DNA of 64,000 bases from Parcubacteria group bacterium Gr01-1014_8 (GTDB lineage Bacteria > Patescibacteriota > Minisyncoccia > Phycocordibacterales > UBA2100), in the NCBI GenBank assembly GCA_007376385.1, contig VMGC01000001.1, positions 288,001 to 352,000 on the forward strand, written 5' to 3'. How positions within the stretch are numbered: position 1 is the first letter of the stretch; each line of letters begins with the position of its first letter. The position numbers were made by a program, and so were the translations under genes. The notes under the pieces are model-generated. The model saw only the letters and a list, made by a program, of their open reading frames with translations. It was not told the DNA's origin and did no database searches. Positions 40,668 to 61,500 of this stretch are shown in pieces.

Positions 40668-42398
40668 ATGAAAGAGTATTTGCATTCTCACGCTCTCGCG
40701 CTCGGGCTTGCGATCGTGGTTGGCATTGTGACGGTCATGCCGATGATTCTGGCGCCGATCTCCCTTGGCGCTGATTACAAGGGCATTCATTATCTTCCTC
40801 TGAATGACGAGGACATTTATCTTGCCCGCATTCACGAGATCCTCGACGGGCACTATAGCGTTACGTCACCGTTTCTGTATGACTATAAGGATGCTGCAAT
40901 GTTATGGCCTCCCATCAACGAATGGCTCTATGCTCTTCCAGCGTTCTTATTCGGGCTCTCAGCCGTCGTTGTCGCGAGCAAGTTTCTGCTCCCCGCTGGG
41001 TTGTTTTTCTTGATATACCTTTTGAGCCGGAAGCTCCTTGGTGAAGAAGACAAGTTAGCTGAAGTATGTGCGATCGCAGCGGGGCTTGTCGCAACGCTCG
41101 GTATTGTATTTGTCGATTACACATACATGGCGTGGTTTTTTGCCGGGAAAGAACACGCCCCGGTCATGTGGACGCGCCTTGTGAATCCCATAACGGGCGG
41201 TGTTGAACTCTTTGCGTTCGTCACGTTACTCTGGTTTATCTGGGAAAGAAAGCGTCCGTATGCATTCGTCGCAGCTGGTTTTCTCCTCGCGCTCATGATC
41301 GGTTACTATTTCGCGTTCGGTATGGGCCTCGCGACCCTTGGCGTGCTGTTTTTTATCGCTCTTCTTCGCAAGGAATTTGCGGTAGCGCGTGAATTTGCAT
41401 ATGTCGGGGTCATTTCCTTACTTCTTGATGCGTGGATATGGTATAACGTTCTCTTTTCGATCGGCGGCGAGGAAGGGAAGGCGCTGGCGATGCGCAACGG
41501 CATGTTTTTTACCCACGAACTTGTCCTCAACAAGGCGCTTTTTCTTGCGACTACCTTCGTCGCGCTTTGTTATCTGTACACTTACGTATATAAGAACAAT
41601 AAGCAGTTTCTGCGCAGCTGGCTCTTTATATTCGCGCTTCTTGGGGCGTCGTGGCTTGCGTTCAATCAACAAGTGATAACGGGTCGGCAGATATGGTATC
41701 ACCACTTCGTGCAATACACCGTGCCCTTATCAATGCTCTCTGTTATTGCGGCGTCATACTTTACGTTGCGCTTCAGCATGCCTCGGCTTTTGCGTTTCGG
41801 CATGCTCGGTATCATCGTTGTGAGTCTCGCCTATGGAGTCTCGTGCATAGGAAGTTATGTCAGGGATATACCGCTATGGTTTGCTGGAGACCAGCGGTAC
41901 GGGGACCTGATGGCATGGCTGAACGAGAATGCGCCGGAGGATTGCGTCGTGCTGGACGTGCAGAACGAAGAGTTTCTCGCTCGCGCAATTCCGGCGTATA
42001 CCGCGTGCAATACATATTTTTCGGCGGTAACGTATGCCGGCATCCCCGAGGAACGCCTTGTGCATAATTTTCTTCTTCGTATGGTCTTGGATGGCACACA
42101 TAAGACGCAGGCCCTCGAATACCTACGTATGCATTCCGAAGATGTGCGAGCAGATTTCTATCCGGATTGGAACGCCATGTTCGGTCACGATGCAACTCCA
42201 TGGATCGAAGGTCGCATGCAAGCGCTCGAGAGTGAATATCAAACATTTGCCGAGGTGCCGCTTAAAGAACAGATGCAAAAATATCGTGTTGACTACGTAA
42301 TTTCAACAGAGGAATTAACCCCGAAGTTGATAGGATCTCTGAATGCAACAAAGCTCGATTCAGCGGGAGTATATCGGATCTATACGCTCGAGAAATGA
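40668..42398 (+). CDS. polytopic membrane protein with a C-terminal soluble domain (possible GT-C/YfhO-like transferase)
   Basis: Track ORF trimmed to the ATG at 40668 (MKEYLHSHALALGLAIVVGIV...). About 12 or more hydrophobic segments over roughly 400 aa, then a roughly 170-aa hydrophilic tail. Confidence 0.45.
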   Translation: MKEYLHSHALALGLAIVVGIVTVMPMILAPISLGADYKGIHYLPLNDEDIYLARIHEILDGHYSVTSPFLYDYKDAAMLWPPINEWLYALPAFLFGLSAVVVASKFLLPAGLFFLIYLLSRKLLGEEDKLAEVCAIAAGLVATLGIVFVDYTYMAWFFAGKEHAPVMWTRLVNPITGGVELFAFVTLLWFIWERKRPYAFVAAGFLLALMIGYYFAFGMGLATLGVLFFIALLRKEFAVAREFAYVGVISLLLDAWIWYNVLFSIGGEEGKALAMRNGMFFTHELVLNKALFLATTFVALCYLYTYVYKNNKQFLRSWLFIFALLGASWLAFNQQVITGRQIWYHHFVQYTVPLSMLSVIAASYFTLRFSMPRLLRFGMLGIIVVSLAYGVSCIGSYVRDIPLWFAGDQRYGDLMAWLNENAPEDCVVLDVQNEEFLARAIPAYTACNTYFSAVTYAGIPEERLVHNFLLRMVLDGTHKTQALEYLRMHSEDVRADFYPDWNAMFGHDATPWIEGRMQALESEYQTFAEVPLKEQMQKYRVDYVISTEELTPKLIGSLNATKLDSAGVYRIYTLEK

Positions 42399-44614
42399 CA
42401 GTGTTACAATGGGCGACACCTATGACTCTCGAGAAAGTGCTACGCTGGATCGCGATCATCGGGATTTTCGCGCTACCGTTCATTGTTCTCATCGTCTCGC
42501 GCTCGCTCTTTTTTCCGTTCATCACCGGAAAAAACTTTGCATTCCGCATTATTGTCGAGATAGTCGGCGGGGCGTGGGTGGCGCTCGCGCTCGTAAACCC
42601 GCTCTATAGGCCGAGGCGCTCATGGGTCTTGCTGGCGTTTACGCTGTTTGTCGTGTTGATAGGGATCTCAGATGCATTTGGCGTCAATCCGTTCAAGAGC
42701 TTTTGGAGCAATTATGAGCGCATGGAAGGATGGGTAACGCTTGCTCATCTCCTGGTGTATCTTGTTGCGGCCGTATCAATTCTAAACACGGAGCAATTAT
42801 GGAAACGGTGGTGGCATACATCGCTCGGCGTTTCAGTTCTTGTCGCATTTCACGGACTTTTTCAGCTTTTGGGATTCATAACTATCAATCAGGGGGGTGT
42901 TCGGCTCGATGCAACTTTTGGCAATGCGACATATCTCGGCGTGTACATGCTTTTCAATGTCTTTGTTGCGGCGCTCTTTCTTTCGCGTGCATGGAACGAG
43001 CATCCCCGCGAGCGCTTCATGTACTCGTCGCTCTACGGCGCACTGATCATTCTTGATACGTTCATACTGTTTTTCACCTCGACACGCGGTGCCATCCTCG
43101 GTCTCATCGGGGGCGTCTTATTCTCAGCAGCGCTGCTTATTGTGCTTTCGCCGAAATCACGCACGGCGTGGTATGCGGGGGCAGCTATCGCGGGGCTTGT
43201 CGTCCTTGCCGGCATGTTTTTACTCGTGAAAGATCAGGCATGGGTGCAAGGGATCGAGCCGTTGCACCGCCTGGCGTCCATCGCTGACGAGGGTGTTCCC
43301 GGTGCGCGGGTCATGAACTGGGGGATGGCGATGCAGGGATTTAAAGAGAGGCCTATCTTAGGTTGGGGCCAAGAGAATTATGCGGTCGTGTTCGACAAAT
43401 ACTATGACCCGCAGATGTTCGGGCAGGAGCCATGGTTTGACCGCGTACACAATATCATTTTCGACTGGCTCATTGCTGGCGGCCTGCTTGGCCTACTTCT
43501 GTATCTTGGCATATATGTCTTCGCGCTTCTTGCCATTTGGCGTTCGGGAGGATTCGCGCAATACGAACGCGCCATTCTTACGGGGCTTTTTGCCGGGTAC
43601 TTTTTCTATCTTATTTTTACATTCGATAACATTACAAGTTATCTTATGTTTGTTTCCCTTCTCGCGTACATCACGATGCGTTCTTCTTTTGACGCGAGGC
43701 CGATCTTTGATCAGATACTTCCCAAAAACACGCTTCCTTTCTTCGCGGTGCTTGCAGTTTTTCTTGTATCAGGTCTTTCATGGTCTGTGAACGCACATGC
43801 GCTCTTGGCGAACAAGCTCATCATTCTTGCTCTCTCGCCGCATTCGGAGGGCGCTTCAAAAAATTTGGAATATTTCAAAGCATCTATCGCGTACGGAACA
43901 TATGGGACGCAAGAAGCGAGAGAGCATTTATCGCAGACAGCAGCTCAGGCCATTCAGAGCACGGGGGTTCCTCTCGATGTACGCAGGGGATTTTTAGAGA
44001 CGGCAGCAAAGGAGATGAGCACGCAGGCCGAGGACTCGCCCCTCAATGCGCGTTTTCCATTTTTTCTAGGCGTACTTCTGGACTCAGCGGGGGACTATAA
44101 CAATGCAAAGCTGGCGCTCGAAAGAGCGAGAGAACTCTCTCCCAATAAACAAGCGATACTATTTGAGCTGGGCCTCAATGCACTCGCTCGGGGTGATAAT
44201 GCGGCAGCACTCAGCATTTTTGAGAGCGCATACAAACTAGCATCGAATTTTGCGGAAGCGCGAACATTCTACACTGCTGTTGCTATCCACACGGATGATC
44301 AAGCAGTTGAAGATCAGATGATACGCGTCATGGTTGAGAATGATCAGGCATTGGAGCCGCGTATTCTCTCGGCCTATGCTTCAAAAAACAGATACGATAA
44401 GATCGCAGCGCTTGCAGCCGCCCAGATACAAATGCATCCAGACGATGTTCAAGCGCATGTGACGTACTCCGCTGCGCTTTATAAAATAGGGAATGTGGAA
44501 GACGCTGTTCGCTCCCTGGAAGAGCTGAAACGCGTCATACCAGGTGCTGCCGCACAGGCAGATTCGTTGATAGCAGATATGTTGAACGGGACGTTAAAGG
44601 TTGGTCAGCAGTAG
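42395..44614 (+). CDS. Wzy_C-domain protein (O-antigen ligase/WaaL- or PglL-type oligosaccharyltransferase-like) with C-terminal TPR repeats
   Basis: 739 aa. Multi-TM N-terminal region with WFDRVHNIIFDWLIAGGLLGLLLYLG (Wzy_C-like H-N-x-x-L...G motif). The C-terminal roughly 280 aa are alanine-rich TPR-like repeats. Confidence 0.55.
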   Translation: MTVLQWATPMTLEKVLRWIAIIGIFALPFIVLIVSRSLFFPFITGKNFAFRIIVEIVGGAWVALALVNPLYRPRRSWVLLAFTLFVVLIGISDAFGVNPFKSFWSNYERMEGWVTLAHLLVYLVAAVSILNTEQLWKRWWHTSLGVSVLVAFHGLFQLLGFITINQGGVRLDATFGNATYLGVYMLFNVFVAALFLSRAWNEHPRERFMYSSLYGALIILDTFILFFTSTRGAILGLIGGVLFSAALLIVLSPKSRTAWYAGAAIAGLVVLAGMFLLVKDQAWVQGIEPLHRLASIADEGVPGARVMNWGMAMQGFKERPILGWGQENYAVVFDKYYDPQMFGQEPWFDRVHNIIFDWLIAGGLLGLLLYLGIYVFALLAIWRSGGFAQYERAILTGLFAGYFFYLIFTFDNITSYLMFVSLLAYITMRSSFDARPIFDQILPKNTLPFFAVLAVFLVSGLSWSVNAHALLANKLIILALSPHSEGASKNLEYFKASIAYGTYGTQEAREHLSQTAAQAIQSTGVPLDVRRGFLETAAKEMSTQAEDSPLNARFPFFLGVLLDSAGDYNNAKLALERARELSPNKQAILFELGLNALARGDNAAALSIFESAYKLASNFAEARTFYTAVAIHTDDQAVEDQMIRVMVENDQALEPRILSAYASKNRYDKIAALAAAQIQMHPDDVQAHVTYSAALYKIGNVEDAVRSLEELKRVIPGAAAQADSLIADMLNGTLKVGQQ

Positions 44615-44718
44615 ACAAAGATAGAAAGATGATATAATTGCGCGGTGAGTGCCATTGCCTGTCTGCGTGCAGTACGCACAGGCAGAAAAGATGGCGTCTC
44701 TCTAGAAAGTCGCGTAGA

Positions 44719-44747
44719 TTCCCCCTCCGGGGGGATTTACGTTTTTG
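44719..44747 (+). terminator. candidate rho-independent terminator (TTCCCCC-TCC-GGGGGGA followed by TTTACGTTTTTG)
   Basis: GC hairpin plus T-tract about 105 nt downstream of the Wzy_C gene stop. The 14-mer GATTTACGTTTTTG recurs at 44953-44966. Confidence 0.4.
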
Positions 44748-44975
44748 TACATTGCCCGAACATTGTTCGAGTGAGGCAGTACAAAAAGGTAGATCCGGCC
44801 GCAGCTGGGATCCCCGCGTGCGGGGAGGCGAGGCGTGCCTACGAGCGACCTAGTTTTCTTATGAGCATAGCGAATTAGAAAACTGGAAGTACTCGTAGTG
44901 GTGCACATAGTATTTTGAAGCGGCATCGCGACAAAATACTTAGTGACTCGGAGATTTACGTTTTTGGATGATACA

Positions 44976-45070
44976 CCCCGTGAGATACAACATATATACA
45001 TTTTGCTCGTGGGTGGTTTTGTTGCTAACACCTGATTACATCGACAGTTCTAATGCGCTATCTCATGGGG
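44976..45070 (+). repeat. 95-nt element with 12-bp terminal inverted repeats CCCCGTGAGATA ... TATCTCATGGGG (copy A)
   Basis: Read directly. A second copy with the same termini lies at 48282-48375. Confidence 0.55.
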
Positions 45071-45400
45071 TACACTATTTGCATAAGGACCCAGTGTGGA
45101 GGGCGGCGGCACTCACATAGACTTTCACTTTGGAGCTCGCACCCGCCTTCCGCATTGGGTCTTTGCAAGTTAGACATTAGATAATGGAAATTAGACAAAA
45201 GAAATTTACAAAATAATTTTTTGCTTATTAAATCTAATTTCTAACTTCCACTTTCTATATATAAAGTTATCCACAGTATCGTCGAATAAAACATATTAAT
45301 CACGCAATGAGTGCAATAATAAAAAAAACGCATCTCGCGTAACTTGAATCTGCGAATGGTGCGGGTCGAATGTTTAGTCGCAGGGGCATCTAAAAAATCT

Positions 45401-45454
45401 ATGGCAAAGAAAAAGAAAGCAAAGAAAAAGGCAAAGCGATCGAAGAGACGCTAG
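45401..45454 (+). other. 17-codon poly-lysine micro-ORF (MAKKKKAKKKAKRSKRR*), about 100 nt upstream of secA
   Basis: ATG GCA AAG AAA AAG AAA GCA AAG AAA AAG GCA AAG CGA TCG AAG AGA CGC TAG read directly. No evidence of expression. Confidence 0.2.
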
Positions 45455-45556
45455 TCAGGCGTGCTTCGAAAGAAAAGACCCTCCATTGCGGAGGGTCTTT
45501 TCGTGCGCGACCAGAGACTGCGAAAATCAGTCATTAGTGTTAGGATGTGCCTCTGT

Positions 45557-48094
45557 ATGGCATTCTGGAAAGGGTTGTTTGGCGATACGAGTACCGCCGC
45601 TCTAAAAAGCGCGATGCCCATTGTCGCAAGTACAAATGCCCTTGAGGACGGTATTCGCGCGCTCTCTGACGATGCGCTGCGGGGTAAGACCGCAGAATTC
45701 AAATTGCGTATAGAAAAGGGCGAAACGTTGGAGGTCTTGGCGCCGGAGGCGTTTGCGGTCGTTCGTGAAGCTGCGCGCCGCACTCTCGGGCAGCGTCATT
45801 TTGATGTTCAGCTTGTGGGAGGCATGGTGTTGCACACTGGCGGCATCGCAGAGATGCGCACGGGCGAAGGAAAAACCCTAGTCGCTACATTGCCCGCATA
45901 TCTGAACGCGCTTACGGGGAGCGGTGTGCACGTCGTGACAGTCAACGATTATCTCTCCCGCCGAGACGGAGTATGGATGGGGGAGATCTATTATGCGCTC
46001 GGGATGTCAGTTGGTATTTTGAATCATGAAGCATCATACCGATACGATCCTGCACACGTGTCCAAAGATTTGATAGAGGAAGAGGATAAGGAACGTGACC
46101 AGCTAGGGAGTTTTAAAGTGATGCATGATTTTTTAGCGCCATGCACGCGTACCGAAGCGTACGCATCCGATATCACCTACGGAACCAACAACGAGTTTGG
46201 TTTCGACTATCTTCGGGACAACTTGGAATACGAGCCGGAAAAACTCCGCCAGCGGCTTCCCGATAAAGGAGGCTACAACTTCGCCATTGTCGACGAAATA
46301 GACTCCATTCTCATCGATGAAGCGCGAACACCTCTTATTATTTCTGCGCCAGTCTCGGATGCGGAGCGGCTCTATGACAGATTTGCGGCGATAGCGCGAG
46401 GGCTTGCGGCCGAAGAGGATTACACGGTTGATGAAAAACACCGCCAGATAGCTCTTACCGATGCAGGCATCGAGAAAGCCGAAAAGGCGCTCGGCGTCGA
46501 GAATATCTACACGGACGCCGGAATAAAGTTGGTGCATCACTTGGAAACAGCAGTGCGTGCTAAGGCCCTCTTCCAAAAAGATCAGGAGTATGTGGTTCGT
46601 GATGGTGAAGTCATCATTGTCGATGAATCAACTGGACGCATGCAGCCCGGCAGAAGGTGGAGTGAAGGCCTGCACCAGGCGATAGAAGCAAAGGAGGGGG
46701 TTGCAATTCAGCAAGAGTCCCGAACATTCGCTTCCATCACATTCCAAAACTACTTTCGGTTATATAAGAAGCTTGCGGGAATGACCGGAACTGCAGCAAC
46801 CTCATCGGAGGAATTCTATAAAGTATATGGTCTGAATACTGTTGCGGTGCCGACCAATGTGCCGCCAAAAAGGGAAGATCACGAGGACCTTATCGTGCAA
46901 ACCGAGAACGGCAAGATGAAAGCAATCGCCAGGCGAGTGAAAGAATTGCACGAAAAGGGCCAGCCGGTCCTTGTAGGCACTGTCTCTGTGGAAAAGAACG
47001 AGCTTCTTTCTGTTCACTTTAGGCAGGAAGGCATCCCGCACGAGCTATTGAATGCCAAGAATCACGAGAGGGAGGGAGAAATAATAGCCCAGGCCGGGCG
47101 ACGTGGTGCGGTAACCATTGCGACAAACATGGCAGGTCGAGGTGTTGACATAAAGCTCGGGGGGAATCCTGCCACGAATGAAGAGTACGAAGCCGTGAAA
47201 GAGCTTGGAGGATTGTTTGTCCTTGGAACCGAACGGCACGAGGCGCGCCGCATCGACAATCAGCTTCGGGGTCGTGCGGGGCGTCAGGGGGACCCCGGTG
47301 GGACACAGTTTTTTGTATCTTTAGAAGATTCACTCATGCGCATATTCGCCTCCGATGTCATCAAACGGGTGATGGGCACGTTCAAGATCCCTGAAGATGA
47401 ACCCATCTTCAATTCCATGATAACGAGGTCGCTTGAAAAGGCCCAGACTCGCATCGAAGAGTTGAACTTTGACGCTCGAAAGCATGTTTTGTCGTACGAT
47501 GATGTGTTGAATATTCAGCGCCAGTCGATCTACGCACGTCGTAGAGCGCTTCTGACGGGAGGGAATGACGCAGTTGACGATGAACTCGCGCGCATTGTCG
47601 AGCCCGATTCCGATGTTATGCGCGCATTGGATGAGCGGAAAAAAGAAATGGGGGAGATGTTCTACAGAGTCTCGAGGCGATTTCTCTTACAAACGGTAGA
47701 CTTTTTGTGGGTGGAGCATCTTGAAGCAATGGAGTACTTGCGCTCAAGTGTGAACTTGCGCGCATATGGGCAGCGAGATCCGCTTGTCGAATATAAGAAG
47801 GAAGGCTTGAAATTGTTCCAGACCATGGAAGGTTCCTACGACGCCAATGTTGTCCAGTCGCTCCCGAACGTCCTACAGGCACAGAAAGATGGTGCTGTGC
47901 GTCCCGCAGCTTCCAAAAGTTTCTTTGCTAAGAGTGTAAGCGCAATTACAAACACCAAGAAAGGCCATGATGAGAAGAAATACGAGCGAAACGAAAAAGT
48001 AACGATCACAAATGGTACAGAAACAAAAGAGATGAAATTTAAGAAAGCAGAGCCGCTTCTGGCAGGAGGGGAGTGGAAGATCGTACAGAAATAG
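45557..48094 (+). CDS. secA: preprotein translocase ATPase SecA
   Basis: Track ORF 45461..48094 trimmed to the ATG at 45557 (MAFWKGLFGD..., typical SecA N-terminus). Walker A MRTGEGKT, DEAD-like IVDEIDSILIDEARTPLIIS, and the full DEAD motor, preprotein cross-linking and helical scaffold regions. Confidence 0.9.
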   Translation: MAFWKGLFGDTSTAALKSAMPIVASTNALEDGIRALSDDALRGKTAEFKLRIEKGETLEVLAPEAFAVVREAARRTLGQRHFDVQLVGGMVLHTGGIAEMRTGEGKTLVATLPAYLNALTGSGVHVVTVNDYLSRRDGVWMGEIYYALGMSVGILNHEASYRYDPAHVSKDLIEEEDKERDQLGSFKVMHDFLAPCTRTEAYASDITYGTNNEFGFDYLRDNLEYEPEKLRQRLPDKGGYNFAIVDEIDSILIDEARTPLIISAPVSDAERLYDRFAAIARGLAAEEDYTVDEKHRQIALTDAGIEKAEKALGVENIYTDAGIKLVHHLETAVRAKALFQKDQEYVVRDGEVIIVDESTGRMQPGRRWSEGLHQAIEAKEGVAIQQESRTFASITFQNYFRLYKKLAGMTGTAATSSEEFYKVYGLNTVAVPTNVPPKREDHEDLIVQTENGKMKAIARRVKELHEKGQPVLVGTVSVEKNELLSVHFRQEGIPHELLNAKNHEREGEIIAQAGRRGAVTIATNMAGRGVDIKLGGNPATNEEYEAVKELGGLFVLGTERHEARRIDNQLRGRAGRQGDPGGTQFFVSLEDSLMRIFASDVIKRVMGTFKIPEDEPIFNSMITRSLEKAQTRIEELNFDARKHVLSYDDVLNIQRQSIYARRRALLTGGNDAVDDELARIVEPDSDVMRALDERKKEMGEMFYRVSRRFLLQTVDFLWVEHLEAMEYLRSSVNLRAYGQRDPLVEYKKEGLKLFQTMEGSYDANVVQSLPNVLQAQKDGAVRPAASKSFFAKSVSAITNTKKGHDEKKYERNEKVTITNGTETKEMKFKKAEPLLAGGEWKIVQK

Positions 48095-48160: not shown

Positions 48161-48281
48161 CGAGCGACACAGACAGCAAAGGTTCAAAGCCCCGCGGCTT
48201 GCCTGCCTGTGCGATGCACGCAGACAGGCCGCGGAATTTGGGACCGAGGAACCTTTATATTCCGTAAGAAAATAGTGTATG

Positions 48282-48375
48282 CCCCATGAGATAGATCATC
48301 TAGATCGGTGATGCATATAGTTCAGTAGTAACATATGAGATTCCTGAAAAAGTGGCGTGAATTTATCTCACGGGG
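48282..48375 (+). repeat. 94-nt element with 12-bp terminal inverted repeats CCCCATGAGATA ... TATCTCACGGGG (copy B), ending 12 nt before gatB
   Basis: Read directly. Same termini and length as the copy at 44976-45070, but the internal sequence diverges. Confidence 0.55.
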
Positions 48376-48387
48376 TATGCTTCCGGC

Positions 48388-50404: not shown

Positions 50405-51130
50405 TTGTCCACGCAAGGTCGGACCTTGCTTATATCTGCGTATTATACTGATTTGGTGGCAAAACGACGAAAAGTCGCCTATATAGCACCCTTTGATAGT
50501 GATAAGTACTATCACGTGCATAACGACGGAATTGATAGGCGAATACTATTCAGCTCCAAGCAGGATTTTGACCGCTTTGAAGCATATTTGTATCTGCTGA
50601 ATTCCACTGAAAGCCCGCGTGCGGCTAATTTTTTTACAGGCAATCGCCAGAACGAAATATTTCAAACGGGGAGAGGCGATAAATTAATAGCACTCGGAGC
50701 TTATTCGATCACGCCGCATGAATTTCACTTGCTTGCTGTGCCTCTGGTCGATGGGGGGATGGGGAAATTCATGCAGAAGCTTCAGACTGGATACACGATG
50801 TACTTCAATAGCAAGTACCAGCGTATGGGACGCATATTCCAGTCCTCATATAAGGCGGAATCAGCTCGATCAGCCGAGCATCTAAAATATATGTTCTGTT
50901 ATATTCATTTAAATCCTGCGCAGATCTTTGACAAAGAATGGGATTCGACAAACGAGAGGAGCGGACTTGCAACACACATATTGAGGGCAATGAATTATCG
51001 CTACTCGAGCGCAAATGAATATACCTCTCAAAAATTTATCATCACGACGCCGCATGAATTTCCGCCCTACATCAGAAGGGTGAGAGATGCGCGCGCGTAC
51101 TTGAAACTTTGGTCAAAGTTTAAAGAATAG
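50405..51130 (+). CDS. REP-associated/IS200-like Y1 (HuH) tyrosine transposase (PF01797-type, RayT-like); start codon uncertain
   Basis: Motifs YHVHNDGIDRRILF..., ...SITPHEFHLLAVP (HuH-like) and ...YFNSKYQRMGRIFQSSYKAES...YIHLNP (catalytic Tyr region) match the REP-tyrosine-transposase/IS200 pattern. The track uses a TTG start, and a perfect palindrome GCAAGGTC-G-GACCTTGC lies within the first about 25 nt, so the true start may be further downstream. No tnpB is present. Confidence 0.6.
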   Translation: MSTQGRTLLISAYYTDLVAKRRKVAYIAPFDSDKYYHVHNDGIDRRILFSSKQDFDRFEAYLYLLNSTESPRAANFFTGNRQNEIFQTGRGDKLIALGAYSITPHEFHLLAVPLVDGGMGKFMQKLQTGYTMYFNSKYQRMGRIFQSSYKAESARSAEHLKYMFCYIHLNPAQIFDKEWDSTNERSGLATHILRAMNYRYSSANEYTSQKFIITTPHEFPPYIRRVRDARAYLKLWSKFKE

Positions 51131-52597: not shown

Positions 52598-55500
52598 ATG
52601 TCTGATGAAATCTTTTTTGATGGTGTTCGATATATTTCGGCGCAGGAAGCTGCGACGTCGTTAGGTTTTTCGCGAGATTACATTGCGAGGCTTGCTCGAA
52701 TAGGCAAAGTCAAAGGCCGACAAATAGGAAAGAATTGGTACGTCGAATTTCGCTCAGTTCAAACGTTTGTCCTTGAGCAGGAGTACTTGCAGGGAAAGCG
52801 TAGAAAGGAGCTTGCGGAGAAGCGAGTCTTCGAATACCGCAAGCAGGTTGGCAGTACGGACGAGAGATCGAGCGATATTGTTGCCCCAGTTATTTTTGCC
52901 GATGCTGTATCAGTTTCTGCAAAGCAAAACAAGAGACATGCGGCTATTAAGGCGATGCTCGCGCGTGCAATGTCTCGCCGCGCCGACTTGAAGGTTCTGG
53001 CGCATGCGAACCGCGTTCATACGCCCTCGTTTTTTTCTGTGACGCCTGCCGTTGAGTTTCTGCACAAACTCACTGCTCTCATTACAGCGTTTGTACTGAC
53101 TTTTGGCGCGTATGCTTTTGTTAATGCGGACTACGCTCATTTTGCACTCGATTCTATACGCTCTGCTTCACGGAGTGTTGTTGCTGTCCCGAAATTGGTC
53201 TGGGGAGGTGATGCAGCACGTTGGGGTTCAGATACAGGTGCGCAACTCGCAGCTGTTGCATTGCAGACAGCTCAGTCGGCAAACCAAGCTGAATCATCCA
53301 TTACTTCATTCATGTCATCTGCCGCAAGAAATTTCAACCTTCACGTTAATGACTTATTGTACGGAGTTATTTATCCGAACATTCCTGGCATGGGTTCTTT
53401 CGCGTTCTCATCTGCGCGTGGCCGCGTCGATATTCAAATTGTTCCGTATCGCAGCGATGCGCCTGCAGCAAGATCGGCACCTGCTCCCTTGATCCGAACA
53501 GCAGTGTCAGCTCCAACAACTGTCATCAATCAACCGATAGTGGAACGCATCAGAGAGACGAAGAGCGTTGTCACGCTCGGCGGGATCAGTGAAGAGCTCC
53601 TAGCATCCAAGTTGCTTGAGCTCGACACCAAACTTTCTTCTCGCATGTTGTCGCTCACCTCTTCTAACGCAACGAGCATTACCCAGGTATATAACACCGT
53701 CGGCCAAATGGGTCGTATTGAACATTTAGATGATCTTGATCTTACAAACCCAACGATTACGAGAGGCACGTTGACGAACGTGAGGATCTCATCTCTTTCA
53801 GCCCCTCTCACAATCTCTGACGGCGGCACTGGAACCTCTAGCGCTCCTACGTATGGAAAAGTTCTCTTAGGAAATTCGAGCGGTGCGTATGATCTCGTCG
53901 CGACCTCATCGCTGGGTGTCGGCGGAACACCCGGCGGCTCGAGCACGCAGGTGCAATTTAACGATAGCGGTGCTTTCGGTGCGGATTCCACATTTACTTT
54001 CAACAGCACCAGCAATCTTCTTTCTTTCTCGAGCGCGTCATCTTCGTTGCAGTCTATTTTTGATCGCCTGTATGTCGGCGGAACGGCGACGACGACCATC
54101 TTCGGCTCCGCGACTTCCACCTTCGGGGCTGGTATCGAGACAACTGCCTTGAACGTTACTTCGAATAGCGCGAGCAGCACATTCGCAAACGGTATCTCGC
54201 TCTCTGCCGGGTGTTTCCGCGACGCGAGCGGGGCATGTCTGCAGAGCGCGACATTTGCGTATCTCTTCCCATCGGACGCAACCACAACCAAACTCACGTT
54301 CTCTGGCGGTTTGATCTCGCTCGCTTCAACGACGATCGGCAATGGCACACAAGCGGGAGGACTCACGATCTCCGGCGGCGCGACGACGACAGGGAATCTC
54401 TTGGTGCAGGGCAATGCGACGACGACAAACTTGGCAGTGTCTGGCACCGCATCGTCATCTGCCCTCGTCGCATCAAATTCATTTACGTTCTCGAATATAA
54501 CAGGCTTCCTCAAGGCGACCGCCGGCGTTGTCGCAACGGCCGCCATCAATCTCGCCTCCGACATCACCGGCATTCTTCCTGCTGGAAATGGCGGCACGGG
54601 ATGGGGCAATATCGCAGCGAACACGATCGTGCTTGGGAACGGCACGGGAGCTATCGCAACGACGAGCGCCGGCACCAACGGCCAGATGCTCGCGCTTGTT
54701 TCGGGAGTGCCGACGTGGACCGCGACGACCACATTCTCAGCCCCACTTGTATTTTTCGCAGGCAATGTCTCGATCGCAGCCTCGAATGGCAGCACAGACG
54801 GCTATCTCACTTCCGCTGACTGGACGCTCTTCAACAACAAAGTCTCTTCTTCTTCGCTCTCGACATTCACGGCAGCCTTCAAAGACTGGAACATTACGAC
54901 AAACACATTCGGCCAGTCCTCTCTCGCTCCAACAACAACGCAAAACATCGCAGTCACAGGCGTCGGCACATCCACATTCGCCGGAGGATTAGAAGCGTGG
55001 AGACAAATAGGCGCTCCATACTTCAACGCTACAAGTTCATCCGCAACGTCAACCTTCGCTGGTGGATTAAATGTGCTCGCCATTAACCAAACTGGTTCTG
55101 CGACATCGACGTTTGCGAATGGTTTGCAGCTTTCGAATGGTTGTATCCGATTACCCTCAGGGAGCTGCTTGGCATCTGTCGCAAATTCTTCGATTGATGA
55201 TCTTAGCGACGTCACTATCACCGCCGCCGCATACGGCGACCTTTTGATGCACAACGGGACTGCATGGGTTGATACTGCCACTAGTTCGCTTGGAATATTC
55301 ATTTCAGACACCGTTGGGACACTTGCCGTGGGGAGAGGAGGCACGGGGCTATCATCGACACCAACGTACGGCCAACTGCTCGTCGGAAATGCTTCGAGCG
55401 GCTACACGCTTTCCGCGACATCAACGCTCGGCATCGCGCTCTCTGACACCATAGGAACGCTGGCGGCGACACGGGGTGGTACAGGACTCTCATCCATCAC

Positions 55501-58500
55501 CAACAACCAACTTCTTCTTGGCGGCGCAGGAAACACGGTCACACAGATCGCCACTTCTTCGCTAAACCTTCTCACGACCGACATAATCGAAGGTTCAAGG
55601 CTTTTCTATACGGACAACCGTGTAGACACATACATACATGGGTCAACCACAATTCCAAAGACATACACAGCAAACACGTTCACGGGGGCGAACACATTCA
55701 ACAGTACTTTTACTCTCGGCACGCTCAATGGTCCCTTGCACGCAAACGCCGGCGTCGTCGGTGCGACGACATCTGTTCTCGCGATCTACGGCGGAACCGG
55801 GCAGACCTCGTATTCAACGGGTGACATTCTCTACGCATCCGGCGCAGCCGCACTCTCGAAACTCGGGATCGGCGGTGCGGGAGAGGTTCTAAAAATATCG
55901 GGAGGTGTCCCGACGTGGGGAACTGATTTGACTTCCGGAGGTGGCGCGGATGGCACATGGTCGACGACTACCTCACAAGTCTCTGGCACGTTGATCAATT
56001 ACCCTAACAATGCATCCGACATCGTTGCCATCGGCTCCACGGCGACGACATCTGCGGAGTACTGGTTTGACCCGAATACGACGATTGCCTATCTTTCAGG
56101 AAAAGTTGGCATCAGCACCACCTCCCCCTACTCAAAGTTAACGTTGTGGGGGAGCGCCTCACTATTTGAGGCAGTGAACACATCTTCGACAACGATCTTT
56201 TCAATAGGCCAATCAGGCGCGACAACAACGAATCTCGGAATTTCGGGAATAGCAAGTTCCCTGCTCAAAACAACATCTACCGGAGGAGTGGTTGCTGCGA
56301 TACCCGACACCGATTACCTCAATACCGCAAGTTCGATCGAATTACTTGGCGACGTCGCCGCGATGACGGAGAATTACGGCGATCTCTTGTATTGGAATGG
56401 CTCCGCGTGGGCTGATCTTGCGACGTCATCGCTTGGGATTGCGATCAGTGACACCACGGGAACACTTGCAGTTGCACGAGGCGGCACTGGTCAAACCACA
56501 TTCTCCTCCTCGCAACTTCTCTACGGAAACGGAACCAACGCGCTTTCGTCTGTCGCAACCTCCTCACTCTCCGCAGGAACCGGTGTCACGTTCTCTGGAA
56601 CTGCCGGCTCTCTCGTTGGAGGCACTGCACTCACCATCAATACACCGTGGACCATCTCCGGAAACAACATCTACAACAACAACATTGCAAATGCCGCCAT
56701 CGGCACATCAACTCCCTACGCCACCACCACGATCTGGGGTAACACTGCTTCAAAGATATTTGAAGTCGTTGCAAACGCTTCATCCACCGTATTCTCTGTT
56801 GCACAAAGTGGAGCTACTACAACCAACCTCGGCATTACTGGCGTCACCAATTCGCTCTTGAAGACCACATCAACCGGTGGAGTCGTTGCAGCGGTCGCAG
56901 GCACGGATTACGCGACACTGTCACAAACATTTGGAAAAGCGTGGGAGATCGACGGTAACGGCTTTACCGGATTCCTTGCACCGACAACAACGCAGAAAGT
57001 GTGGATCGGGCAGGCGTCGTCGACGCTTCTATCGGTGAATGGCCCTGCATACTTTGGCTCAACCGCAACCTCCTCATTCTCAACCGCCGGCGTCCTCACG
57101 CTTGCCACCGATCTCGCAGTCACCGAAGGAGGCACCGGAGCTTCCACGCTCACCGGCCTTCTCCAAGGAAACGGCACGTCGGCGTTCACCGCCATCACTG
57201 ATTCATCCACGGTGGGACAGATACTCCGTGTGACTGGTGCATCAACATACGCCTGGGGAGCACTGAACCTTGCAGACACTGACGCCATCACCGGAACGCT
57301 TCCCATCTCCAACGGAGGCACCAACAACACCACCTACTCCACCAACGCGCTCCTCTACTTTGACGGAACATCCATCACTGCTACTTCCACCAGACCCCTC
57401 TACGTCGGCGCTATCAATGCCACCACAACAGCCACCTCCACTTTTGCAGGAGGCATCTCTGTTCTCAACTTCGCACAGACAGGAACAGCAACAAGCACGC
57501 TCGCAAACGGGCTCACCTTAACCGGTGGCTGTGTCATGGTGAACGGAAACTGCATCTCACCCGTTGGGAACTCCTCCATCGAAGATTTGAACGACGTTGC
57601 TGCGATGACGGAGAACTATGGAGACCTTCTTGGATGGAACGGCAGCACGTGGACTGACTTTGCCACCACCTCACTCTTCACCGGTTCCAACGGGCAGATG
57701 CTTGCATACGCGAATGGCGGGTGGACGGGAGTTGCAACAACAACAGCCGGCACTGGTCTCACATACACCGGCTCTGCGTTCAATGTTGACCTTGGTACCT
57801 CTATTAGCGCAGCTGAGATCGCAGACGGCGATCACGGCGACTTCACATACACCAGCGGTGTTGCAGCCATCGATGCAAACGCCGTCACCCTCGGCACCGA
57901 CACAACAGGGAACTACGTTGCAACACTCGCAGATTCAGGCGGAGGAACACTCACCATCTCCAACTCAGGCAGCGAGACAGCGGCAGTGACAGCCTCCCTC
58001 AACCTTGGCAACGCCAACATCTGGACTGGCAAGCAGAACTTCTTTGGTTCTGCATCGTCGACGCTGTTCTCAGCGAACTGGCTCAAAGTCGGTCAAACAG
58101 CATCAACCACATTCGATTCCGCTGGCAACGCAACCATCGGCGGCACCTTGAACGTCACCGGTCAAACTACACTTGCCACTTCACTCACTGGATTACTCAA
58201 AGCAACCGCAGGAGTTGTCTCCTCTGCAACAGAAGGCACTGACTACCTCTCCAATGCACTCCGCGATTGGTCAGTACAAGGCAACGGATACCTTGCACCA
58301 ACGACAACGAGAGGAATCATCGTTGTTGCATCATCCACCATCGGCGCGGGAGGACAAGCGACGGGGCTCACCATTTCAGGAGGCGCGACGACGACGGGGA
58401 ATGCGTATTTTGCAGGGAATGTGGGTGTTGGGACAGCTGCACCAAGTCAAAAATTGCAAGTTGTTAACGGCGCTATTGATATCAACACCGACGACCAGTT

Positions 58501-61500
58501 CTTGTACTTCGGTAGCGGGGACGCCGGCATCAGGGAAAGCGGTGCCAATTTGAAATTTGAGACGTATACGGGCGCTGCACTCACCGAAAAAATGAGAATT
58601 ACTGGCGCAGGCAACGTCGGCATCGGGACCACCACTCCCGCAACCCTCCTCTCCATCGCCGGCACGAGCGGCCTCTTTGCCTCCACGACCGCCACCTCCA
58701 CCTTCCAAGGCGGCGGGATTAACTTGCTCACGGCGGCGGGGAATACGGGATGCTTTGCGGTGAATGGGACGTGTCTTTCCAATACCGCTTCCGGCATCGT
58801 CGGAAGCGGCACCACCGGACAATTTCCGTACTATGCCGCCAACGGCACGACTTTGACGGCGACCTCGACACTTTTCGTCTCGACCGCGAGCAATGTTGGG
58901 ATCGGTGCCACCTCTCCCGCAGCAAAGTTAGACGTCGAAGGTTCCGGTGCGGTCTTGACCGACATCATGGTAGGCAACTCACAGGCCAATGCAAACTTCG
59001 GTATTTCCGCGGCAGGAGTTCCCCACCTTTGGACGAACAATGCCTCGTGGCCGCTTGTGCTCGGTGTCGGTGGCGCAGAGAAAATGAGAGTGCACACGGA
59101 TGGAAACGTAGGGATCGGAGCAGGTGCAACGGGTCCCGGGGCACTCCTCACGGTTGACTCTGGTGCAGCGTCTCTCACGGACATCTTGGTCGGCAACTCG
59201 CAAGCGAACGCGAATTTCGGAATCTCCGCAGCGGGCGTAGCCCATCTGTGGTCAAATAATTCAAGTTGGCCTCTTGCGTTCGGCATTGGAGCCGCGGAAA
59301 ATATGCGAATCCACACGAACGGCAACGTGGGGCTCGGGAACACCTCCCCCTCCTACAAACTCGACGTCGCAGGGTTCATCAACACCGACCAATTCTCCGG
59401 CTACAAGCAGAACGGCACGACCATTCTCTATTCATCTTCGACGCTTGCCACGATGTTCGGCGGCTACCAGGCCGGCAATGGTCAAGTGCAATCAGGAACC
59501 GGACTCTACAATACCGCGTTTGGCTATCAGGCGCTCTTGAGCGCCACGTCGTCTAGCAGAAGCACAGCGGTCGGCTTTTCAGCGCTCGCAAGTCAGGCGA
59601 ATGCCAATGGCAACGATGCGCGTAATACCGCAGTTGGTTCCCAAGCGCTCGGCGGCACAACGTACGGTTACTACAACACAGCTGTCGGCTCTGATGCTCT
59701 CGCTGCCAACACGACCGGATACTTCAACAGCGCATTTGGCCAGGGCGCGCTCACTGGCAATACGACCGGCCGCGATAACATTGCAATTGGCTACAATTCC
59801 GTGAGTCAAAGTACAGCCGCCCTCGAAAATATAGGTATCGGCAACTCCTCGCTTTCAGGAGCGTCGCTCACGGGGGCAGACAACATCGCTATCGGTCGGC
59901 AGGCTGGGAGCGCCATGTCGAGCGGGAGTTACAACATACTGATTGGCCAATATCTCTACAACAGCGGCACCGTCTTTACTGGCTCAAACAACATCATCAT
60001 CGGGCGCGACATCGGCTCGACCGCATCTCCCTTGGTTTCGACGACAACAAGCAACGCGCTCAACATCGGCAACTTGATTTTCGCGACCAGTCTCGGCACG
60101 GCGGACACTCTTTCGACGGGTAATGTGGGTATTGGAACAGCGGCACCGAATTATCAACTTTCAAACAACTCCGCGAGTAATAACCTGGATTCGGGTTCCA
60201 CGGGGCTCTCGACCGCAAGTAGTTTCAACTGGGCGAACAACGGCTCCGGCTACGGTGCAGGATTGTATAACGCAAGCGCCAATTCGGATGCAAACGGGCT
60301 GTTGGTAAAAATTCGCGGTACGGCCTCTACCAACAAAATTCTCTCGCTCGACACGGGCACGACGCAAGCCGGCGCGGGAACAAATGTGCTGACGGTATTA
60401 GGAAGCGGCAACGTCGGCATTGGGACGACGAGTCCGCGCAGCGCCCTCTATTTCCAGGCGAACAGTAGCGATCCATCGTTAACATCATGGACAGGCATAG
60501 GGACGATGCGCGCTAGTACTGGTGTAGAACTTGCGATGGGTGCAGACGATACGACACCTTTCGGCGCGTGGCTGCAAACGAAAGACAGCACAAATGGCGG
60601 TACATCCTATCCACTGCTCCTCAATCCTCTCGGCGGCAACGTTGGCATCGGGACGACTACGCCTCAAACGGCGTTGCATGTAAACGGTATTCTCGCGGCA
60701 ACGCCAAGCTACGGCTTTTACTGGTACAACGGGGCAACATTCAAAGGCGCACTCAAGCATAACTCATCCAACGATAACCTTGAGATATACACCGCCTCTG
60801 ATGGCAGCACGCCGCGGCTCACAGTCCAAAGTTCTTCCGGCAACGTCGGTATCGGGACGACCAGTCCCGTGTCGATACTTGCTGTTGCTGGTGCCAATCC
60901 TGTACTTACCCTCAATCAAACGAGTAGCGGTAATGTTTCTGGCTTAAAGATAACGAATGGAGTAAATACGCTAGGCACATTTACAGTAGCAATAGATACA
61001 GGCGAGGTCAGGATAGGTGGTACGTCTAGCGGCGGTTATTATGATACTTTCTACGCCGATGGTTCGGAAAGGATGAGGATTACAGCAGCAGGCAACGTCG
61101 GCATCGGGACGACGACGCCGCAGTGGCTTTTGAATCCGACTTCGGCAAGCGCATCACAACTTGCCCTTTCGGCGGGGGCGGGCATCGCGCAATGGACGTT
61201 TAGGAATGCAGGCGGGAATTTGTATCTCTCAACAACTACCGTTGCAGGAACCGCAACGACATCGATAAGCGCGCTTGAGATTGCGGGCGGAGGATTAGGA
61301 ACGACAACCGTGAGAGGGCTAAACATCAGCGCTGGCGCAACATCAACGTCTAATGTGGGCTTCTCACTCACGAGCGGATGCTTTGCAACGCCCGCGGGCT
61401 GTATCTCGGGCGTTGGCGATTCTTCCATCGAAGCATTGAACGACGTTGCTGCGATGACGAAAAACTTCGGTGACTTACTGTATTGGAATGGCACAACATG

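Follow-up and report, generated by a model that had tools for sequence, protein, structure and literature searches.

A window of 64,000 nucleotides (nt), which is the whole stretch of DNA analysed here, was taken from contig VMGC01000001.1 of Parcubacteria group bacterium Gr01-1014_8. Within this window, a gap of 942 nt (44615–45556) separates the gene of a Wzy_C/TPR membrane protein (739 amino acids (aa), 42395–44614) from secA (ATG at 45557). An earlier note on this DNA had singled out the gap as an unusually long, structured region without credible open reading frames (ORFs) other than a 17-codon, lysine-rich micro-ORF. The ensemble had been read as non-coding RNA or leader space, and the micro-ORF as a possible ribosome-stalling leader of secA in the manner of SecM. 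Here we describe three small genes in the gap, namely two candidate small RNAs (sRNA-1 and sRNA-2) and a micro-gene that contains the micro-ORF, as well as the repeats that lie between them. With a probability of roughly 75%, the gap represents a conserved island of small genes of the Paceibacteria (candidate phyla radiation, CPR), composed of three seemingly autonomous transcription units and repeat padding, and not a leader of secA.

Experimental

Apart from the strain's own protein, the closest SecA homologues share 75–83% identity and are labelled Candidatus Kaiserbacteria; the host of the window is an uncultured groundwater bacterium of the Kaiserbacteria. The Kaiserbacteria comparison set consisted of the window and seven more loci (L004, L005, L007 and L089–L092). 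A SecA search of genome contigs, in which most matches belonged to distant phyla, supplied a distant set of about nine Paceibacteria loci, and the same search yielded a control set of about 65 secA loci of other phyla. A pattern for sRNA-2 retrieved at least 120 metagenome stretches, and about 200 related loci were compared overall. Homologues of the micro-ORF (Lys-ORFs) were counted in distinct related secA loci with enough upstream DNA, as ORFs within 1.2 kb of secA and on its strand.

Results

The order of the Wzy_C/TPR gene, a long gap, secA and gatB was retained in all Kaiserbacteria relatives fetched, and the gap before secA was never short (641–2282 nt). Comparison of the loci showed how the gap is built (Table 1), that this anatomy is conserved, that sRNA-2 has an RNA structure and that the micro-ORF evolves in a coding-type manner. 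All six features listed in the earlier note were found again. These are a hairpin followed by a T run (44712–44742), which was recovered by a terminator scan, together with the 14-mer GATTTACGTTTTTG, present at 44734–44747 and 44953–44966 (94% identity when extended to a 17-mer); a second hairpin with arms at 44904–44922 and 44927–44945; the inverted repeat termed element A (arms 44976–44987 and 45059–45070, 12–13 base pairs (bp) including one G·U pair); a long imperfect hairpin at 45080–45172, whose fold matched the description; an AT-rich tract (21–30% GC) with TTAGACA-type direct repeats and an inverted repeat; and the 17-codon ORF from ATG 45401 to TAG 45454, encoding MAKKKKAKKKAKRSKRR.

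Table 1 Features of the gap upstream of secA and their further copies in the window
Feature	Coordinates	Strand	Remarks
sRNA-1 extended −10 box TGATATAAT	44630–44638	+	TGnTAnnnT 6–7 nt upstream of GTGAG in essentially all of 64 aligned homologues; putative promoter
sRNA-1 candidate	44645–44747	+	5′ GUGAGUGCC, hairpin P1, single-stranded CUCUCUAGAAAGUC, intrinsic terminator (stem 44712–44742 and U run)
Palindrome GCCTGTCTGCGTGCA..CGCACAGGCAG	44657–44686	+	Inserted at the tip of sRNA-1 P1
Unit X, accessory hairpin block	44748–44966	+	Contains the hairpin with arms 44904–44922/44927–44945; 44950–44966 repeats the sRNA-1 terminator tail 44731–44747
Element A	44976–45070	+	REP/MITE-like palindrome: CCCCGTGAGATA, 71 nt, TATCTCATGGGG; TACA on each side
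sRNA-2 −10 box TACACT (putative)	45071–45076	+	34 nt before ACTCACA in the window
sRNA-2 candidate	45080–45172	+	About 95 nt, interrupted 30-bp hairpin; apical motif GC-ACUCACA..loop..UUGGAG-CUCGCAC conserved
AT-rich spacer	45173–45266		TTAGA-type repeats and imperfect inverted repeat
TTATCCACA	45267–45275	+	Perfect match to the DnaA-box consensus
Micro-gene extended −10 box TGCAATAAT (putative)	45312–45320	+	About 40 nt downstream of TTATCCACA
Micro-gene 5′ untranslated region (UTR) element	45328–45369	+	Stem ACGCAUC..GGUGCG (GRUGCG in relatives) around a variable hairpin, then invariant GGGUCGA
Micro-ORF MAKKKKAKKKAKRSKRR	45401–45454	+	17 aa and stop
Terminator-like hairpin AAAAGACCCTCC-attgc-GGAGGGTCTTTT	45467–45507	+	3′ of the micro-ORF
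secA extended −10 box TGTTAGGAT (putative)	45538–45546	+	10 nt upstream of the secA ATG
secA	45557–48094	+	SecA Pfam domains; 100% identity with SecA of Parcubacteria group bacterium Gr01-1014_8
Palindrome GCCTGTCTGCGTGCA..CGCACAGGCAG, second copy	48200–48229	−	Just downstream of secA
Element A, second copy	48270–48376	−	Ends 12 nt upstream of the gatB ATG

Folding of the segment 44615–45180 yielded −225 kcal/mol on the plus strand, compared to −172 ± 7 kcal/mol in shuffled sequences (z = −7.8), and −187 kcal/mol on the minus strand (z = −5.0). The better folding of the plus strand indicates G·U pairs and thus points to RNA transcribed from this strand. The assumption of non-coding RNA was borne out in so far as two structured segments proved to be conserved RNA genes, each with a promoter-like −10 box and a hairpin terminator. 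Since their relative orientation varies between genomes, sRNA-1 and sRNA-2 do not form one RNA. The statement that the gap holds no credible ORF was accurate apart from the micro-ORF: ORFs of 46–109 aa in the gap matched no Pfam family above threshold (an ApeC match with E = 0.015 was sub-threshold), tblastn with the Y1 transposases and IVP proteins of relatives found no remnant in the gap, and indels occur in 45080–45172. With neither a Pfam match nor a transposase or IVP remnant, a decayed protein gene was excluded. Covariance models of Rfam 15 gave no match at gathering thresholds across the 64 kb. When the gap and the homologous gap of L010 were searched up to E = 10, only chance-level fragments of microRNA, small nucleolar RNA and sRNA families appeared, and ARAGORN detected no tRNA or tmRNA in the region. 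The RNase P RNAs of CPR bacteria are divergent (PMC8172020). A disguised RNase P RNA or signal recognition particle (SRP) RNA was rejected, as covariance models gave no signal for either even at E = 10.

The segment 45080–45172 was identified as a structured RNA by its pattern of substitution. A hidden Markov model (HMM) of sRNA-2 built without the window matched 45079–45176 (E = 4.7e-27) and nothing else significantly. We found sRNA-2 in at least 120 metagenome stretches, with one copy per contig and at least 115 distinct homologues. The copy in the window matches those of L004, L005 and L007 with 85–91% identity, but these stand in the opposite orientation; in L089, L090 and L092 the orientation is that of the window. 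In the distant Paceibacteria loci L010, L011, L014 and L016, which were found by the HMM, the stem sequences are wholly different yet still pair. The consensus fold reached −43.6 kcal/mol on the plus strand versus −20.3 kcal/mol on the other strand, with compensatory changes in 19 of 29 pairs and many G·U pairs; the G·U pairs and the folding energy thus define the plus strand of the window as the sense strand. In an alignment of 85 sequences, 93.3% of the cells were paired, compared to 75% after shuffling and 40–51% with slid partners, and none of 500 shuffles matched the observed pairing. Furthermore, 23 of the 30 pairs vary on both sides, with a covariation score of 0.488 versus 0.161. Judged by these compensatory changes, sRNA-2 is a structured RNA gene, and it is not coding, because 1-nt indels in homologues break its 25–26-aa ORFs.

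In addition, sRNA-2 is predicted to carry its own transcription signals. A TAnnnT hexamer ends 28–47 nt (mode 35–36) upstream of ACTCACA in 100 of the 115 distinct homologues, as opposed to 19% of controls; the hexamer is extended by TGn in 54 homologues, and a U run follows the hairpin in 53. Neither viral contigs nor Rfam yielded a match to sRNA-2. Partial second copies of sRNA-2 were observed at 2973–3017 of L090, at 1731–1767 of L091 and downstream of sRNA-2 in L107, L118, L133, L155, L160 and L167. In these copies the outer stem (GCGGAGGRCGGGTGCGAGC..) is kept and the apical part is replaced by a longer, differing insert; several stand in reverse orientation directly after sRNA-2. A further observation concerns the loci L010, L014, L094, L098, L099, L101, L112, L121, L146, L147 and L162, which are devoid of a Lys-ORF and exhibit a separate sRNA-2 subtype, its loop being AUUAAAUUUAAACAUUUUAUUU and not GACUUUCAC. 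The type of loop seems to be associated with whether a Lys-ORF is present.

The second RNA candidate, sRNA-1, occupies the other end of the structured segment. An HMM built without the window matched 44628–44754 (E = 5e-16) as the sole match in 64 kb. All eight Kaiserbacteria loci contain sRNA-1 with its putative promoter, on either strand, in the layout TGnTATAAT, 6–7 nt, GUGAGUGYC, hairpin, (A/U)(A/U)GAAAGUC and long hairpin terminator, and it was detectable in the distant locus L010 too. At most a few hundred nt separate sRNA-1 from sRNA-2 in about 56 of 78 metagenome loci, where the two are arranged mostly in tandem (sRNA-1, then sRNA-2) and at times convergently. Hairpin P1 covaries among 70 unique sequences (GUGCCAC/GUGUGGC, GCGCCC/GGGCUC, GUGUCAC/GUGUGAU, GUGCUAC/GUGUAGC), and the terminator stem exhibits compensatory changes as well as G·U pairs on the sense strand. 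A search for targets of the sRNA-1 seed elsewhere in the window returned matches no better than chance.

Both RNAs probably act in trans. At the 5′ end of sRNA-1, GUGAGUGCC is exactly complementary to GGCACUCAC of sRNA-2, and the single-stranded segment CUCCAAAGAAAGUC is approximately complementary to the sRNA-2 loop and 3′ strand, GACUUUC(AC)UUUGGAG. The two antisense segments stand in permuted order relative to sRNA-2, and energies of full-length sRNA-1:sRNA-2 duplexes from the window were no better than those of shuffled sequences. Given the antisense relationship of the two conserved unpaired sRNA-1 segments to the conserved apical strand and loop of sRNA-2, the RNAs possibly act on each other, an interaction that we put forward as a hypothesis only.

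The third unit, the micro-gene, begins with a DnaA-box-like motif. The copy of TTATCCACA in the gap is the sole perfect one within 64 kb, and boxes with one mismatch occur at chance frequency. The motif was found on the same strand in all eight Kaiserbacteria loci and in 56 of 62 Lys-ORF loci, nearly always 119–155 nt upstream of the ATG. Among 65 aligned sequences, the extended −10 motif (GCAATAAT; (TG)CAATAAT) was at least 90% conserved. An HMM covering the region from box to ATG, built without the window, gave a single match at 45267–45412 (E = 8e-20). The stem of the 5′ UTR element shows a few compensatory variants, identified by eye only (CGCUCC/GGGGCG, CGCAUC/GAUGCG); past GGGUCGA the UTR is A/U-rich and lacks a Shine–Dalgarno motif. 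Downstream, a hairpin with T run lies between micro-ORF and secA in 61 of 62 loci, 4–60 nt past the stop codon (median 21). Expression of the micro-gene may be tied to DnaA.

The motif (G)CACUCA, which complements the 5′ end of sRNA-1, was observed 17–30 nt upstream of the Lys-ORF ATG in 10–21 of 65 UTRs (e.g., L093, L117, L171, L201). CACUCA itself occurs in 10 of the 65 compared to 0.7 expected, and is absent from the micro-gene UTR of the window. Seed pairing of sRNA-1 with the micro-gene 5′ UTR was set aside, as CACUCA is missing in the window.

A perfect DnaA-box consensus beside a tract of 21–30% GC, conserved throughout the clade and accompanied by structured RNAs, could also mark the region as (part of) a chromosomal replication origin. 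However, GC skew is positive on both sides of the gap in the window and in 20 of 28 related loci, and the flanking genes are co-directional. Only one perfect box is present instead of a cluster, boxes with one mismatch stay at background level, and the spacing of the box to the −10 box and ATG of the micro-ORF is fixed, as for a promoter element. With no switch of GC skew or gene orientation and no DnaA-box cluster, we rejected an origin and give it next to no credence.

The micro-ORF itself proved to be conserved in position and composition. We detected it in 62 of 95 distinct related secA loci and in every Kaiserbacteria locus (8/8), whereas the control set of about 65 secA loci of other phyla contained no such ORF. 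The 62 homologues measure 10–81 aa (median 18.5; 12–23 aa in Kaiserbacteria) and contain 48% K, 21% A and 14% R. The Kaiserbacteria peptides are MAKKKKAKKKAKKSKRR (L004), MAKKKKKAKKSKRR (L005), MAKKKKGKKKRR (L007), MAKKKKAKAKAKKRR (L089), MAKKKKKASKKKRR (L090), MAKKKKAKAKKRR (L091) and MAKKKKAKKTAKKKKATKRKKRA (L092); versions from distant Paceibacteria (16–76 aa) include MAAKKRKAAKRKPAKKRKATKKKRA (L012) and a 65-aa AKK/APK repeat protein (L016). Indels among the 62 intact micro-ORFs are multiples of three, and the termini are conserved (N-terminal MA(A)KK, basic C terminus ..KRR). Between the window and L004, four of five codon changes are synonymous (GCA>GCC, AAA>AAG, AGA>CGC, CGC>CGA), and the fifth (CGA>AAG) exchanges Arg for Lys. 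By reading frame and substitution pattern, the micro-ORF thus appears to be a protein-coding gene. AAG accounts for 75% of lysine codons in micro-ORFs compared to 51% in the adjacent secA (Fisher p = 1.7e-32), and the longest A run is 5–6 in 54 of 62 micro-ORFs. This AAG bias and the short A runs suggest that accurate translation is needed, contrary to what a poly(A) device for slippage or stalling would call for.

We also considered an untranslated micro-ORF, whose purine-rich tract would serve at the RNA level, e.g., as target or sponge of the U-rich sRNA-2 loop. Indeed, this loop (GACUUUCACUUU) is complementary to the AAAG/GAAAG repeats, 60 of 62 loci lack a Shine–Dalgarno sequence, and an exact look-up of seven homologues (23–76 aa) found none of them in a collection of 15 billion predicted proteins. 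However, ATG and in-frame stop are kept in 62 loci despite lengths of 10–81 codons, double and triple synonymous changes occur (e.g., AGA to CGC), both termini of the peptide are maintained (MA(A)KK at the N terminus, basic residues at the C terminus), and the choice of lysine codons differs from that of secA in the direction of accurate translation. We therefore regard an untranslated element as very unlikely.

The longer Lys-ORF homologues gave no significant match in Pfam, NCBIfam or the sequences of the PDB, and the peptides contain neither a hydrophobic stretch nor a signal sequence. In L017 (3283–4001), a CPR genome that is more distant, a Lys-rich ORF (37 aa) is followed by an hpf-like ribosome hibernation factor gene, identified from its translation, and by secA; this gene order hints at a link between peptide and ribosome.

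Downstream of the micro-gene, secA is predicted to have a promoter of its own. In 71 of 88 distinct loci, compared to 10% at random positions, the start codon of secA is preceded by a TAnnnT hexamer that ends 4–13 nt (mode 6–8) ahead of it and is typically TAGGAT in Kaiserbacteria. Because the −10 box lies so near to the ATG, the secA mRNA is probably leaderless, with no upstream ribosome-binding site to unmask, and secA appears leaderless across Paceibacteria. Moreover, micro-ORF and secA are not always adjacent. A 99-aa ORF (L090) or a PaaX_M gene (L091) intervenes, gaps of 0.9–3.4 kb occur in L144, L153 and L157, and in L161 the two genes are divergent.

These data bear directly on the SecM analogy of the earlier note. 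In a monitor of this type, the poly-Lys upstream ORF would stall ribosomes, and the stalled ribosome would remodel the mRNA and so allow secA to be translated. It would fit that 62 of 95 related loci have a small ORF close ahead of secA (median gap 111 nt), and polybasic nascent chains are known to slow elongation. Against this mechanism stand the terminator between micro-ORF and secA (61/62 loci), the −10 box of secA 4–13 nt before its ATG (71/88 loci) and the intervening genes or divergent orientation in six loci (L090, L091, L144, L153, L157, L161), so that co-transcription with a sequestered secA ribosome-binding site does not apply. The peptide, rich in K (48%), A (21%) and R (14%), has no signal or transmembrane segment. 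The ribosomal exit tunnel is spanned by about 30–40 residues, and with 12–23 aa the Kaiserbacteria versions are too short to leave it. Lengths vary from 10 to 81 aa without a fixed arrest motif, only composition and termini (MAKK.., ..KRR) being conserved, and the preference for AAG avoids A runs. On account of own promoter, own terminator, secA −10 box and non-adjacency, a SecM-type mechanism is excluded, apart from a very slight residual chance.

The same evidence argues against a transcription attenuator, in which translation of the Lys/Arg leader would govern terminator read-through into secA and thereby sense translation capacity or Lys-tRNA charging. The classical layout of leader-like ORF, hairpin with U run and gene is present in 61 of 62 loci, with the terminator at a median of 21 nt past the stop, and linkage to secA is tight. 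Yet secA has its predicted promoter downstream of the terminator, the distance from stop to terminator is variable (4–60 nt), and other genes stand between micro-ORF and secA in several genomes. The basic residues are mixed (Lys 48%, Arg 14%), so that charge is conserved and not a run of one codon, and secA is no lysine biosynthesis gene and is unrelated to lysine supply. A classical attenuator is therefore unlikely.

The remainder of the gap consists of repeats and an accessory block. Instead of belonging to a single long leader RNA, the 14-mer repeat, the first two hairpins and element A represent tails of terminators, a block of accessory hairpins and inserted palindromic repeats. The palindrome at 44657–44686 was found in the window and L005 and is missing from the same loop in L004, L007 and L089–L092. 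A hairpin CTGCCGCACAGGCAG at 44547–44561, in the coding sequence of the Wzy_C/TPR gene, has the 12-mer CGCACAGGCAGA in common with this palindrome and gave a sub-threshold match to CRISPR-DR4. Unit X is missing from L004, L005, L007 and L089. Its part 44903–44965 recurs between sRNA-1 and sRNA-2 in L159, L170 and L189, and 44782–44847 recurs after sRNA-1 in L197, together with a 35-nt tail repeat. Unit X may have arisen by partial tandem duplication of the sRNA-1 3′ end or by insertion; its end repeats the tail of the sRNA-1 terminator, which explains the duplicated 14-mer. A target-site duplication was rejected as origin of the 17-nt direct repeat, since the second copy is the tail of the recurrent hairpin block (L159, L170, L189, L197).

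Element A is a short, imperfect extragenic palindrome present in several copies and in both orientations, as is characteristic of repetitive extragenic palindromic (REP) elements. The two copies in the window have conserved arms and diverged interiors, and each retains a G·U pair on its own strand. Intergenic regions of L007 (two sites), L144 and L154 harbour short forms whose loops measure 9–34 nt. When element A and one TACA are deleted from the window, the resulting TGATACACTATTT equals the sRNA-2 promoter sequence of L165. Element A is located in the putative sRNA-2 promoter with the −10 hexamer preserved. The TTAGA repeats of the AT-rich spacer are confined to the closest relatives L005 and L007, and an AT-rich stretch precedes the TTATCCACA box in all loci. 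Arrays of the TTAGA(A/G) type were seen as a hairpin at 45170–45260 of the window and at 4975–5085 and 5556–5690 of L007, where they flank the IVP gene insertion on both sides and are present once more shortly before secA. This distribution suggests that they form another short-repeat family.

Insertions are common around secA. Cargo genes often lie inside the Kaiserbacteria gap, such as a Y1 transposase (L005), a 23S-rRNA-IVP family protein (L007) and PaaX_M-domain proteins (L091, L092). In the window, the ORF 50405–51130 (+) is Y1-transposase-like, with 32–34% identity (E ~1e-36) to the Y1_Tnp genes flanking secA in L004 and L005. This ORF and the IVP and PaaX_M cargo genes of relatives indicate that both flanks of secA are an insertion hot spot. 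No arm of element A was found near 50405–51130, and the Y1_Tnp gene of L005 is flanked by a different palindrome.

It may thus be asked whether the whole gap is functionless debris of mobile elements (REP with their REP-associated tyrosine transposases (RAYT), or IS200-like ends) at such a hot spot. Y1 transposase, IVP or PaaX_M genes in both secA flanks of relatives, the repetition of element A and the 30-nt palindrome with variation between genomes, and a break of public assemblies beside one repeat are in line with this idea. It holds for 44657–44686 and 44976–45070, and perhaps for 44748–44966, but not for the remainder: sRNA-1, sRNA-2 and the micro-gene are single-copy and clade-conserved, with covariation and promoter and terminator signals, and no transposase pseudogene is present. 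We consider debris as the sole explanation highly improbable.

A public contig of the same strain is identical to the window through 48243 and then continues with differing genes (cupredoxin and others), and contigs containing gatB begin at 48244. This joint (window 48243/48244, L003 12687/12688, L001 44/45) lies 14 nt from the palindrome 48200–48229 and is an assembly break or a strain rearrangement at the repeat. As secA is followed by gatB in relatives, the gene order of the window is probably correct. In L010 and L014, murB is located directly upstream of secA. Towards the end of the window (~54000–64000), GC rises from about 0.47 to 0.55 and GC skew becomes negative, which may be due to an island or a strand switch or may mark the side of the chromosomal terminus.

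Discussion

Based on these results we propose that the gap contains independent small genes. sRNA-1 (about 100 nt) would start from an extended −10 box and comprise the 5′ end GUGAGUGCC, one hairpin, the single-stranded AGAAAGUC and an intrinsic terminator. sRNA-2 (about 95 nt), a long interrupted hairpin with a conserved apical motif, would be transcribed from its own −10 box. The micro-gene would use an extended −10 promoter about 40 nt downstream of the DnaA-box-like TTATCCACA, carry a conserved 5′ UTR hairpin, be translated without a Shine–Dalgarno sequence into a 17-residue oligo-lysine/arginine peptide and end at its own terminator. Finally, transcription of secA would be directed by a −10 box of its own, located 10 nt upstream of the ATG, and would probably give a leaderless mRNA. 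This genome appears to have gained unit X and element A between sRNA-1 and sRNA-2, element A having entered the sRNA-2 promoter. The earlier reading of the ensemble as RNA or leader space thus holds in part: the region is rich in non-coding RNA and the micro-ORF is conserved, but the parts are independent small genes instead of a single leader of secA.

Several points weigh against this proposal. All promoters, start sites and terminators, and translation as well, are deduced from the sequence and its comparison with relatives, and a generic promoter scan found no −35/−10 pair in the gap, the proposed promoters all being of the −10-only or extended −10 type. As homologues of sRNA-2 were gathered with a fixed pattern of the apical motif, the invariance of this motif is partly by construction; the motif is also present in L010, L011 and L016, which were found by HMM, with a variant in L014, and the outer 25-pair helix is unaffected by this bias. 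RNAcofold did not favour pairing of sRNA-1 with sRNA-2 over two monomers, and covariation of flanking bases between the two RNAs is weak. A Shine–Dalgarno-like motif precedes only 2 of 62 micro-ORFs, and the peptide had no family or structure match. Lastly, the micro-ORF lies within 160 nt of secA in 46 of 62 loci, a linkage tighter than chance that leaves some room for coupling, e.g., by terminator read-through. Transcription start sites, translation, DnaA binding and all functions are predictions.

A large part of bacterial diversity belongs to the CPR, whose genomes are annotated almost wholly by homology, which leaves their sRNAs and micro-proteins near-invisible. The present locus offers three conserved small genes that were recognised neither by searches of Rfam, Pfam, NCBIfam and PDB sequences nor in the literature, where full-text searching found no description of these elements. 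As a well-supported structured RNA with more than 100 homologues, sRNA-2 could be proposed as a new RNA family. If real, the oligo-lysine peptide would be among the shortest conserved gene products of bacteria, with a testable DnaA-box motif. The analogy to SecM was attractive but is wrong. In addition, leaderless secA is indicated across the clade. More tentatively, and with considerable doubt, we suggest that the oligo-lysine micro-protein of Paceibacteria (10–81 aa; 12–23 aa in Kaiserbacteria) is a genetically encoded polycation dedicated to neutralising or compacting nucleic acid, be it as part of the ribosome or nucleoid or in place of polyamines in cells of reduced metabolism. In this reading, DnaA would switch its promoter and thereby couple its supply to the replication cycle, and the two neighbouring, hitherto undescribed sRNAs would be a regulatory pair of the same conserved module beside secA. 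If so, the locus would hold one family of small proteins and two RNA families, all of them new and confined to a major uncultured lineage.

Comparison with known systems

The position of the micro-ORF recalls SecM–secA of E. coli, MifM–yidC2 and VemP–secDF2, in which a small ORF is likewise located directly upstream of a Sec-pathway gene and conserved in position. SecM, MifM and VemP are much longer. Each possesses a specific arrest motif in addition to a signal or transmembrane segment, and each shares a transcript with its target, whose ribosome-binding site it unmasks. In contrast, the peptide described here is purely basic, measures 12–23 aa in Kaiserbacteria and would have its own terminator, and secA has its own predicted promoter and is apparently leaderless.

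With 4.5S or small SRP RNA, sRNA-2 shares a single long hairpin of about 100 nt, conserved internal loops near the tip and, in this locus, the vicinity of secA. However, none of the SRP models of Rfam matched it up to E = 10. The terminal loop of sRNA-2 is variable, AU-rich and without a GNRA tetraloop, and the conserved motifs of SRP RNA domain IV are absent. In its conserved 5′ end, hairpin, single-stranded stretch and terminator, sRNA-1 resembles classical trans-acting sRNAs with 5′ seed and Rho-independent terminator, and its two conserved segments antisense to conserved parts of sRNA-2 are reminiscent of pairs of sRNA and sponge RNA. Unlike these systems, the two RNAs belong to no Rfam family and their predicted heterodimer is not favourable.

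Element A agrees with REP/RAYT systems and miniature inverted-repeat transposable elements (MITEs) in being an extragenic imperfect palindrome that occurs in either orientation, recurs in relatives and has 4-nt flanking repeats. Y1_Tnp genes lie near element A loci in this genome and in relatives, as known from REP/RAYT. Differences are the few copies in the DNA seen, the loops of 70 nt in the window and the local Y1_Tnp gene, which is not flanked by element A.

Like DnaA-regulated promoters, the micro-gene has a perfect TTATCCACA whose position is fixed, about 40 nt ahead of the −10 box; here the box is single and putative, and the product would be an oligo-lysine peptide. We know of no such peptide among DnaA-controlled genes.

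The AKK-type low-complexity composition of the peptide is found in Hc2 of Chlamydia (PF07382) and in the H1-like protein of Burkholderia (NF038053), although the peptide of the window is about ten times shorter than H1-like proteins. Only the 76-aa homologue gave weak matches to H1-like families (E 0.25–0.65), scoring 11.7 bits against a cut-off of 40 for PF07382 and 10–11 bits against 80–135 for NCBIfam models, including NF038052. With scores so far under the curated cut-offs, membership in the Hc2 family was rejected. Very small polybasic ribosomal proteins are represented by bL37 and bS22 of mycobacteria, Thx of Thermus and eL41, to which the peptide is similar in size (17–37 aa), extreme positive charge and stand-alone gene. 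No sequence relationship to them was seen, and the length of the peptide varies five-fold or more; since it ranges from 10 to 81 aa, the peptide is unlike a protein with a fixed ribosomal site, for which such variation would be unusual. By analogy, the peptide is most likely a functional product that would act as a free polycation on nucleic acids, at the ribosome or in the nucleoid, as tiny basic ribosomal or H1-like proteins do.

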